The notes beneath the pieces were generated by a model, which was not told the DNA's origin, made no database searches, and saw only the letters and a list, made by a program, of their open reading frames with translations. A program made the translations under genes and the position numbers. From contig OZ243938.1 in the NCBI GenBank assembly GCA_965214095.1, forward strand, positions 4,128,001 through 4,192,000: a DNA stretch of 64,000 nucleotides. The letters are read 5' to 3'. This document shows positions 1 through 1,945 of this stretch, one piece after another. The first letter of the stretch is position 1. Every line of letters begins with the position of its first letter. The DNA is from Candidatus Poribacteria bacterium. Lineage in GTDB: Bacteria > Poribacteria > WGA-4E > WGA-3G.

Positions 1-129
1 AATTCCACCTACCTGAGCAATCTTACCATCAATTATCAGCACATCACCAACTTCATCAATATTATTCGCAGGATCAATGATATGACCATTACGTATCAGC
101 ACATTGTCAATCTTTTCCGTGTTATTCAT
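1..129 (-). CDS. pyrC: Dihydroorotase, N-terminal part (runs off window start)
   Basis: The reverse strand from ATG at 129 reads MNNTEKIDNVLIRNGHIIDPANNIDEVGDVLIIDGKIAQVGGI, a typical amidohydrolase/dihydroorotase N-terminus. It lies downstream of pyrR. Not in the ORF track. Confidence 0.75.
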   Translation of the reverse strand, partial: MNNTEKIDNVLIRNGHIIDPANNIDEVGDVLIIDGKIAQVGGI

Positions 130-182
130 CAAAGTTTCAGGCAGGAGACCCGCTGCTTTAGCACGGGGAGGAATGCCCGTTC

Positions 183-1223
183 CTATCTATATTGAAAGTT
201 AAGTTTAGTTAACACCTTGAAATCTCTTTGTTTTGCACTTGTAGTTAACCGTTTCCCATCAAGACTATAGATTGAAAACAATCCTTTTGCGTTGACACCT
301 ACTAATCTTGTCAATCCATATTTGATATGCTTGACAAGTGTGTTCTTGACCAATCCTTCTTTTAGCAATGTGCCACCATATCGTGAACGGATACCCCCTT
401 TTTTCGGTTGTTCTCTGTGTAAATTGCGTCTTTCTATCGGTATGGGTGATATACAGAATATATCTGTCGTATCTGGTATGCTATCACCGCCGACAGTATG
501 ATAAGCAAGACACCAACTATCCACACAATGTGCGTCAAAGGTTTCTGTTAACTTCTGTTTAGACTTTTTCAACCCAAGTCTATCACGGATTTCCTTTGTT
601 TCCCAACCTTGAAGTGTTAGCAGGTGCCAACGCTTCTTGATATTCTGATAGAACCACTGCTTACCAACTTCCAATGGACCAAAAGATTGATTCCATTTTT
701 TGGCACGTTTGATAGTCCGTGCTTTGATGTCTTCTACACATACATGACTAATAGGGTAGAGTTTAGATAACCAATCCAGTATCCTTAACTTCCAATCCCA
801 TCTCGCACGCGTACCAGCAGGTATACGTTTTCTGTTAGCAAGTTTGTTTGTCCTATTCTTGCGATTAGGACACTTCCGTGAACGTCTACTTCTGCGAAGT
901 TCTCTACGTTTTTCAACCTTTTTACCAACCTTGTTATGTGCATCTGCCTGAACATTCAAATAAGTGTGTTTCTCTGATTTCACAGTGAAACCTTCTTTCT
1001 TACTACCAGGATCCACACCAACTACTATGTCTTGGAGTTCAGTGTCTGATGGATCAACATTAAGTCGGACGCAAAATGTGCAATTATTCCAAAAGGGTGT
1101 CGCTTTTCCTGTTTGTATCCAACGCCTCGCCCGTGAGGGCTTCGTAGGCATGAGAGGGTGTTGATTTTTGTCTACTACTGGAACTAAGATGTGTAAACCT
1201 CCGAAGAGTATATATTGCCCCAT
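183..1223 (-). CDS. isrB: IsrB (IscB-family RNA-guided RuvC nickase lacking HNH; RRXRR/PLMP N-terminus)
   Basis: PLMP motif (HPLMPTKPSRARRW), RuvC-I VGVDPG, Arg-rich bridge helix (RRELRRSRRSRK), RuvC-II CVEDIK, RuvC-III HCVD. No HNH or Zn-finger insert. About 335-346 aa. The real start is probably near 1190. Confidence 0.88.
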   Translation of the reverse strand: MGQYILFGGLHILVPVVDKNQHPLMPTKPSRARRWIQTGKATPFWNNCTFCVRLNVDPSDTELQDIVVGVDPGSKKEGFTVKSEKHTYLNVQADAHNKVGKKVEKRRELRRSRRSRKCPNRKNRTNKLANRKRIPAGTRARWDWKLRILDWLSKLYPISHVCVEDIKARTIKRAKKWNQSFGPLEVGKQWFYQNIKKRWHLLTLQGWETKEIRDRLGLKKSKQKLTETFDAHCVDSWCLAYHTVGGDSIPDTTDIFCISPIPIERRNLHREQPKKGGIRSRYGGTLLKEGLVKNTLVKHIKYGLTRLVGVNAKGLFSIYSLDGKRLTTSAKQRDFKVLTKLNFQYR

Positions 1224-1394
1224 CCAGATCAGGTATTCGTAGAGGGATCAGACTTGGGGAGCATCCGAAACATACATTGGACTGCCACGTTCAGAATACC
1301 CGATATTTTACTGTAGTCAAGACTTAATCTTGTGGAGTGAACGCTTGGCATGCGTTTCGCACAAGCACCGAAGCTTTAGCTCGGTGTCACTGAC
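1200..1394 (-). ncRNA. omega-RNA scaffold (HEARO-like) upstream of isrB
   Basis: Structured non-coding stretch between the left end and the isrB RBS: 11-bp helix 1294-1304/1228-1238 (ATCGGGTATTC/GAATACCTGAT), CTTGTG/CACAAG pair, GGATGCTCCCCAAGTC stem-loop, and a possible TGCTCC/GGGGCA pseudoknot. The 3' boundary is approximate. Confidence 0.75.
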
Positions 1395-1945
1395 TCTGTT
1401 TCCACTTCACATATCATTGCAGAATCTACACCATGTTCTTCTACTAATTGTACTCTAACGAATTCTTTACGGGAAGTGGGTACATTTTTTCCAATATAAT
1501 CTGCTGAGATAGGAAGTTCTCGATGTCCTCTATCCACCAGAGCAGCAAGTTGGATAGCAGCGGGACGACCAAAATCCATGATCGCATCCATCGCTGCTCG
1601 TGTTGTACGTCCAGTATACAGAACTTCATCAACCAAGATTACCCATTTTTCTGTCACTTCAAACGGCATTTCAGTGGTATTCACCTGAATCTGTGATTCA
1701 TGCAAATTGAGGTCATCACGATAAAGTGTTACATCAATTGCACCAACTGGCACTGCGATATTTTCAATTCGTCCCAAATTTTCTGCAATTCGGTATGCAA
1801 GGGTATCCCCACGACTTTTTATACCGACTAACACCATATTCTCAATGTGTTTATGATTACGCTCCAATATTTCATGTGCAATTCTGACTAACGCACGCCG
1901 TATTTCCTCAGCGTCCATAACTTGTGCTTTGTCTCGCATTTTCAT
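1376..1945 (-). CDS. pyrR: Bifunctional pyr operon regulator / uracil phosphoribosyltransferase PyrR
   Basis: [42 protein letters not shown] and [21 protein letters not shown] motifs. Likely start at ATG 1945 or 1939 rather than 2023. Confidence 0.95.

Follow-up and report, generated by a model that had tools for sequence, protein, structure and literature searches.

An IsrB-encoding mobile element between pyrR and pyrC in a Poribacteria genome, with a predicted guide from pyrR and a predicted ATGA target-adjacent motif

The DNA analyzed here, a stretch of 64,000 nucleotides (nt) from Candidatus Poribacteria bacterium (contig OZ243938.1 of assembly GCA_965214095.1, positions 4,128,001 to 4,192,000; hereafter the window), carries a mobile element of 1,265 nt between the genes pyrR and pyrC. 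The element occupies positions 130..1394 on the minus strand, the strand of all features given below unless stated otherwise, and is inserted in the orientation of the pyr operon. We consider it very probable that it is a non-autonomous element of the IS200/IS605 type that carries the gene of the protein IsrB together with its omega RNA, with a guide derived from the end of pyrR and with ATGA as its target-adjacent motif (TAM). The copy in the window is a well-preserved and ordinary member of the IsrB/omega family, with nicking as its predicted activity. The parts that merit a second look are the pairing between a residue of IsrB and the flanking motif and the landing of copies at gene starts; the rest adds nothing to what is known of the family.

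On the minus strand, the point of entry reads ...GAA ACA GA|G TCA GTG ACA CCG AGC TAA, the G of GTCA being position 1394, and the far end of the element reads ...GAAACTTTG (...CTTTG) and finishes at 130, followed by ATGAATAAC from 129. An earlier note on this DNA had placed GTCA at 1394 within the end of pyrR, the far end directly against ATGA, and a guide in the 20 nt at 1414..1395, and all of its coordinates and strings are correct. Joining the flanks in silico gives ...ACA GAA TGA for pyrR and ATG AAT AAC for pyrC. In a comparison of the pyrR-pyrC junctions across 29 loci of relatives, the empty site foreseen by that note (...ACAGA^ATGA...) is present in the two closest ones (G001 and G005), base for base collinear with the joined flanks of the window. 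The same junction is found in a 2,145-nt contig of the environmental sequencing run X1, which joins position 129 to 1395 and skips exactly 1,265 nt with an ambiguity of 0; this contig stems from a relative that differs at 15 of 127 pyrC-side bases and at 4 of 75 pyrR-side bases. Four runs (X1-X4) were examined as contigs; the parts of the element uncovered in X1 and X2 are uninformative, and the occupied site is present at 100% identity in X3 and X4, which probably stem from the source organism or from one nearly identical to it. Because of the relatives' empty sites and the X1 joint, the element can be delimited as 1394..130, inserted without target duplication, and the adjoining ATGA (126..129) is host sequence. 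This tetranucleotide, the ATG of which is the start codon of pyrC, is the target of the insertion and the predicted TAM, based on the empty sites, the contig joint, the tally of flanks given below, and published TAMs. The junction had also been described as a stop-start overlap without target duplication. The duplication is indeed absent, but an actual ATGA overlap of pyrR and pyrC is found in only four of the 29 loci (L037, L039, L040, and L041), and in the two closest relatives the ATG of this motif is probably not the start of pyrC, which would sit 10-17 nt downstream.

The genome (G000, 5.25 Mb) contains five full copies of the element, i.e., four besides that of the window. All five begin with GTCA and share a near-identical 16-nt tail ending in G, and the GTCA ends of the other four follow unrelated flanks, so that the boundaries are not due to chance. 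The search for further copies suggested by the earlier note thus recovered the predicted GTCA start and a shared far end, and an ATGA flank in all but one of the five. Perfectly abutting empty sites that keep ATGA were found for two further copies, L003 (in G001 and G005) and L005 (in G006 and G002), and the site of a third, L004, is collinear in G005, where that spot reads AAGA. Both element ends carry a hairpin with the loop TAAA that shows compensatory changes between copies. The first one (1366..1386), identified from the copies and from covariation (helix 2), is at the same time a transposon-end hairpin and stem-loop 1 of the omega RNA, and two of its pairs have changed in a compensatory way in the window copy when compared with the other four of the genome. 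The other transposon end (130..182), recognized from the sequence and the copies, fills the 53 bases that separate the end of the IsrB frame from the far end of the element and consists of a hairpin (∼167-149) and a 19-nt tail ending in G. The end with the omega RNA had been named the left one, yet in IS200/IS605 nomenclature it corresponds to the transposon right end (Meers et al., preprint, bioRxiv 10.1101/2023.03.14.532601).

The element encodes an open reading frame (ORF) of 346 codons and a stop (183..1223, counted from an in-frame ATG at 1223) that had been assigned to IsrB, and this identity is borne out by Pfam, structure, and profile matches. Residues 14-168 match the Pfam family RRXRR (PF14239, E 9.2e-34), covering the PLMP domain (HPLMP is visible), RuvC-I, and the arginine-rich bridge helix, and the best match among solved structures is the IsrB of Desulfovirgula thermocuniculi (DtIsrB, PDB 8DMB; E 1e-33, or 1e-42 with a profile of 17 sequences), with IscB structures far behind. 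No HNH family was found in the protein by a Pfam search at E ≤ 0.01, and the 68 residues between E164 and H232 are collinear with DtIsrB. The motifs VGVDPG, VEDI, and HCVDS align with the RuvC motifs of DtIsrB, and their residues D71 (codon 1013-1011), E164 (734-732), H232 (530-528), and D235 (521-519), which we take to be catalytic from work on Cas9 and IscB, are invariant in 17 homologs; the RuvC D/E/D residues are thus intact, as had been noted. The profile alignment places ...DGKR-L-T-T over ...DGKR-I-G-Q of DtIsrB, such that R325 (codon 251-249) corresponds to R323 and T328 (242-240) to Q326, the TAM-reading residues. A structure prediction from the 17-sequence alignment yielded a poor model (mean pLDDT 54, pTM 0.45); its top fold match in the PDB is again 8dmb (E 2.5e-16, TM 0.48), to which we give little weight at this level of confidence. 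Judged by these matches, the protein is a member of a family of RNA-guided nickases with a RuvC and without an HNH domain, and an ortholog of the characterized family rather than a new kind of nickase; it had been proposed as a candidate new compact nickase.

Upstream of the IsrB gene lies the putative omega RNA scaffold (1188..1394), a HEARO-like RNA of ∼200 nt that starts with GUCA and contains a Shine-Dalgarno sequence, GGAGG (1202-1198), in its 3' part. The covariance model of HEARO (RF02033), a check proposed in the earlier note, matches it weakly over model positions 1-211, starting exactly at 1394. As the Rfam gathering threshold would not call this RNA, we rely on covariation, which backs the structure. 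When 18 distinct copies from nine genomes are aligned, the consensus fold comprises 46 pairs, 17 of which show compensatory changes, with 98.4% of the cells paired; the covariation score is 0.359, versus 0.155 in shuffled alignments (none of the 500 reached it) and no more than 0.062 when the partners are slid. By this evidence the omega RNA is real and occupies the ∼200 nt ahead of the IsrB gene. Many stand-alone copies of the first ∼190 nt, i.e., of the end with the omega RNA and without the IsrB gene, are found in genome G003 (e.g., G003:C1:4119667-4120180), and at least one of them is a deletion derivative that retains both ends.

The guide is predicted to be the 20 nt of the pyrR 3' end that abut the scaffold (1395..1414), a length assumed from DtIsrB, whose guide of 20 nt lies 5' of the scaffold and whose TAM is NTGA, with TTGA used at 60 °C and ATGA also cut (Hirano et al., 2022, PMC9581776). 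The guide from pyrR and the ATGA TAM that the earlier note had deduced from the junctions fit this activity. The last 16 nt of the predicted guide occur once in the genome, as is the case for the guides of each of the five copies. In the related system of ISGst5, the IscB scaffold comes from the transposon right end with the guide outside the boundary, the TAM of GstIscB (TTCAT) lies beside the transposon left end, which corresponds to ATGAA on the nuclease strand, and transcription of the guide must come from the host, with insertions co-oriented with the upstream gene (Meers et al.). In our dataset, a clear upstream ORF is present for 73 insertions, and 56 of these share its orientation. HEARO elements are also said to sit beside ATGA or GTGA; a literature search returned no relevant paper linking HEARO with ATGA.

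To characterize the motif, 104 copies were pooled (38 from the genus and, from the 80 best loci, the 66 that were usable), corresponding to 88 unique sites. The regular expression employed requires G and then R-T-[GA]-R after the element end, so that positions 1-3 are partly presupposed and the fourth base is free; L129 was left uncalled and L138 was miscalled, its end being directly followed by TGAT. Copies with threonine at the position equivalent to Q326 are flanked by ATGA (56), GTGA (8), AGGA (1), and ATAA (1), besides one miscall, i.e., by ATGA or GTGA in 64 of 67 cases and with A as the fourth base in 66 of 67. Those with glutamine are flanked by ATGA (10/10, plus two more found by eye), and those with arginine by ATGG (7) or ATAG (2), with G as the fourth base in all nine. 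The arginine-type loci among the relatives of the genus are L057, L077, L078, and L095-L099. The fourth base of the flank hence tracks the residue equivalent to Q326, in the direction of a published mutant: in DtIsrB, R323 reads G3 and Q326 reads A4 of the TAM, and the Q326R variant also accepts G4 (PMC9581776). Since the arginine-type copies form a single clade, this link corresponds to one evolutionary switch. Taken together, these comparisons support the assignment of the guide and of the ATGA TAM.

From these elements a working cycle can be proposed. Transcription from the pyr promoter would read through pyrR into the element and produce an omega RNA in which the structured scaffold of ∼200 nt is joined to a 5' guide made up of the final 16-20 nt of pyrR. 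A Y1 transposase, TnpA, supplied in trans would excise the element, and the IsrB-RNA complex would recognize the vacated site by the guide match and the TAM ATGA, with the third base read by R325 and the fourth by T328. Nicking of this site by IsrB may then lead to recombination with a sister copy and restore the element. The occupied site would be protected, since the sequence that comes after the guide match there, GTCA, is not a TAM and is devoid of the G expected by R325.

The four sister copies lie at different sites and are 98.8-99.7% alike, which argues for a recent spread. Beyond this genome, 508 of 523 candidate stretches in a search for related records encode a relative, and 79 of the 80 best records are labelled as Poribacteria; of 40 genomes of the genus, 24 have a match to some part of the element, and nine have full-length copies (from a table read by eye). 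A literature search found no paper covering both Poribacteria and IscB. The element is non-autonomous, the only Y1 transposases being encoded elsewhere in the genome. Five TnpA (PF01797) hits were detected there, four of them in TnpA+TnpB elements of 1.8 kb, and the TnpA of these resident elements is a plausible helper, as suggested by their ends: one end (TTCAAC... and a hairpin) resembles the GTCA end of the IsrB element, and the other is followed by a conserved GTGAA. The four (L046-L049, at G000:C1 near 81623, 4230081, 2385609, and 2170036) are IS605-type elements of 1,826 nt, 98% alike, in which tnpA (138 aa) and tnpB (420 aa) overlap. The genome also holds at least three copies of a non-coding mini-element of 340 nt flanked by GTGA (L007, L008, and L009, at G000:C1 near 2163205, 3328836, and 915796), one end of which is like that of the TnpA+TnpB elements and the other like the far end of the IsrB element. 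There are ten short extra matches to the final 60 nt of the IsrB element, and at least three of them are explained by these copies. Near one mini-element copy, at a distance of a few hundred bases, is a cobalamin riboswitch (RF00174, 90.4 bits; L007:835-1085).

Several observations speak against this reading of a working IsrB element. The HEARO match falls far short of the gathering score of 83, with 20.2 bits for the window copy and 28 for two further copies, sister or related ones. Copy L002, one of the five in the genome, is an exception with its AGGA flank; the intergenic region there has diverged in all five relatives examined, which prevented a reconstruction of its empty site. No TnpA was found in any of the 133 IsrB loci examined, and the elements of the resident TnpA have ends that are similar to but different from those of the IsrB element; the mobilizing enzyme is for these reasons left as a candidate. 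The 5' end of the RNA, the nicking, and the excision are predicted steps. The window copy, only 92.6-92.8% identical to the other four, is the sole representative of its sub-lineage. Finally, the start codon of IsrB is unusual. Of 17 aligned homologs, 15 start with M-F/Y-V-P-V (among them one M-N-F-V-P-V and one with GTG), 7-9 nt after the Shine-Dalgarno sequence, yet at the place of this canonical ATG of the family all five copies in the genome carry ATC (1190-1188, 7 nt past GGAGG). Translation must therefore begin either at this rare codon or at the upstream ATG at 1223, which would add 11 residues to the PLMP domain; this ATG sits within a conserved motif of the omega RNA and is in frame in this sub-family only.

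Some of these points could also mean that the insertion is a stranded relic, retained only for being nearly neutral in its operon, in which IsrB is no longer made or active, with its start codon lost and no cognate transposase. Besides the ATC, the single copy of the sub-lineage, and the loci without TnpA, the private substitutions G48C and S182G at otherwise invariant columns could be taken in this sense. However, two such deviations are within the range of 0-5 seen in 15 of the 16 other homologs, the IsrB frame is open in all five copies, and the hairpin changes of the window copy are compensatory. The ratio of non-synonymous to synonymous substitution rates (dN/dS) is 0.18 in a comparison with a sister copy that counted 38.5 synonymous differences and 27.5 non-synonymous ones, and both lineages already carry ATC. 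This purifying selection between two ATC-bearing lineages indicates that the protein is still made, and the ATC-bearing sister lineage did give rise to four closely similar copies at different sites. We therefore regard the relic as unlikely, although it deserves to be kept in mind, and retain the reading of a putatively working element.

Two further alternatives concern the flanking motif. ATGA could represent the last four bases of the element itself, the true empty site being ...ACAGA^ATAAC and the flank uninformative on the TAM; an internal end would explain why ATGA or ATGG lies beside nearly every copy, and the flanks joined without ATGA still give a pyrR stop (TAA) at the same place. 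This is very improbable, as the relatives' empty sites keep ATGA and abut without a missing or an extra base at three loci (that of the window, L001, as well as L003 and L005), the environmental contig retains it at the 129|1395 joint, and G005, collinear at the L004 site, reads AAGA in this place. The motif could instead reflect nothing but an insertion preference of TnpA, with a different or looser TAM for IsrB itself. In IS200/IS605 elements it is the transposase and the element ends that choose the target (Meers et al.), the TAM proposed here is read from the flanks, and the arginine-type copies reflect a single switch in one clade. Against this, the varying residue is exactly the one aligned with Q326 of DtIsrB, the association of arginine with G and of glutamine with A goes in the direction of the published mutant (PMC9581776), and in published work the motifs of the transposase and the nuclease coincide (Meers et al.), so that we find a mere TnpA preference rather improbable and still favor ATGA as the TAM of IsrB.

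The copies show a tendency to land at gene starts. Of 37 copies, 18 lie exactly between a host leader and its ATG: the ATG of their flank opens at least 98 codons and is preceded by at most 45 open codons. This is a large enrichment over the 4.4% of all ATGR sites in the genome. L056 was omitted from this count (the script found no hairpin loop); its ATG opens two codons, and its inclusion would give 18 of 38. A Shine-Dalgarno-like motif is present in the last 16 nt of the flank preceding the element in 11 of these 18 copies, versus 2 of the remaining 19 and 9% of positions drawn at random. When compared to sites that do not disrupt a gene, for which 30% would be expected, the enrichment is modest (p 0.014), and the pattern may mostly be due to selection acting on a motif that resembles a start codon. 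It is conceivable, if doubtful, that the Poribacteria IsrB clade goes beyond this, its motif RTGR equating to a start codon and the next base and thereby directing preferential, gene-oriented landing on starts and ATGA overlaps, where the host promoter would make the omega RNA and the ribosome-binding region of the gene would become the guide. If so, this would be a natural system that couples the supply of guide RNA to host gene expression and may modulate the translation of the genes it landed at, and the natural switch from Thr or Gln to Arg would retarget it from ATGA to ATGG.

Within the pyr operon, a promoter-like site (2269..2297; TTGCAA, 17 nt, TATAAT, with TG), a consensus match only, precedes a putative PyrR-binding leader RNA (2116..2236; RF00515, E 9.5e-4, its 41.7 bits falling short of the gathering score, 54) and a terminator-like hairpin with a T-run, recognized from the sequence, that is likely the pyr attenuator (2015..2038). 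No further terminator-like site was found on this strand between this hairpin and pyrC, and the supply of guide RNA is predicted to be placed under pyrimidine attenuation. The pyrR gene (1376..1945; PF00156, E 2e-19; 61-97% identity to the PyrR of relatives) receives its last five codons and its stop from the element. As had been deduced, PyrR now ends in ...ETESVTPS*, five residues longer, the new stop TAA (1378-1376) lying in the loop of the element's first hairpin. The 5' part of pyrC, encoding dihydroorotase, lies at 1..129 and continues beyond the window (intact, 435 aa). The claim that the insertion spares both genes therefore holds for the reading frames, yet pyrC is separated from its former upstream and ribosome-binding context by a passenger of 1.3 kb. 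In G003, which represents another species of the genus, the pyrR-pyrC spacer (L020) contains an element that differs from that of the window: it measures ∼570 nt, has TAAA-loop hairpins and similar hairpin ends, and terminates directly at the start codon of pyrC (ATGG), ∼600 nt after the pyrR stop; it is a second, independent insertion at this junction. Upstream of the pyr leader, on the plus strand, lie ORFs of 148 aa (3101-3547) and 595 aa (3606-5393), by eye NusB-like and with beta-propeller-like repeats, respectively.

The window element provides a fully resolved natural example of an OMEGA system as predicted here, in which the guide derives from the flank, the TAM equals the target of the transposon, and the element's own end protects the occupied site. 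Its copies represent a natural experiment on TAM recognition that could help in selecting compact nickases for ATGA or ATGG TAMs. Among known systems, the protein resembles DtIsrB in its size (∼340-350 aa), its PLMP domain, split RuvC, and arginine-rich bridge helix, the short linker in place of the HNH domain, and the C-terminal TAM-interacting domain with its conserved arginine, and the two share an upstream omega RNA with a Shine-Dalgarno sequence in a 3' hairpin and a TAM of the NTGA type (PMC9581776). They differ in that the identity is 27% (in a structure-based alignment with the poor model), threonine replaces Q326, the scaffold upstream of the ORF measures ∼200 nt versus 262 nt, the canonical start is ATC, and the IsrB of the window is known from sequence. 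Similarly, ISGst5 of Geobacillus stearothermophilus is a non-autonomous IS605-family element whose guide comes from the flank outside the omega RNA end, whose TAM lies at the other end, and whose insertions are co-oriented; its TnpA acts in trans, which here has only a candidate counterpart, and its IscB has an HNH domain and cuts both strands, unlike the IsrB of the window (Meers et al.). With HEARO RNAs, the scaffold shares a match to the full model, the GUCA start, a conserved internal loop, and the 3' Shine-Dalgarno sequence, but its 20-29 bits leave this clade below the curated threshold. Elements of the IS200/IS605 family that move by "peel and paste", such as IS608 and ISDra2, insert without target duplication, have subterminal hairpins, and lie beside a fixed tetra- or pentanucleotide. 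The window element likewise shows no target duplication, two hairpin ends, and an adjoining fixed motif, and differs from IS608 and ISDra2 in having no tnpA and in carrying IsrB instead of TnpB as its cargo.

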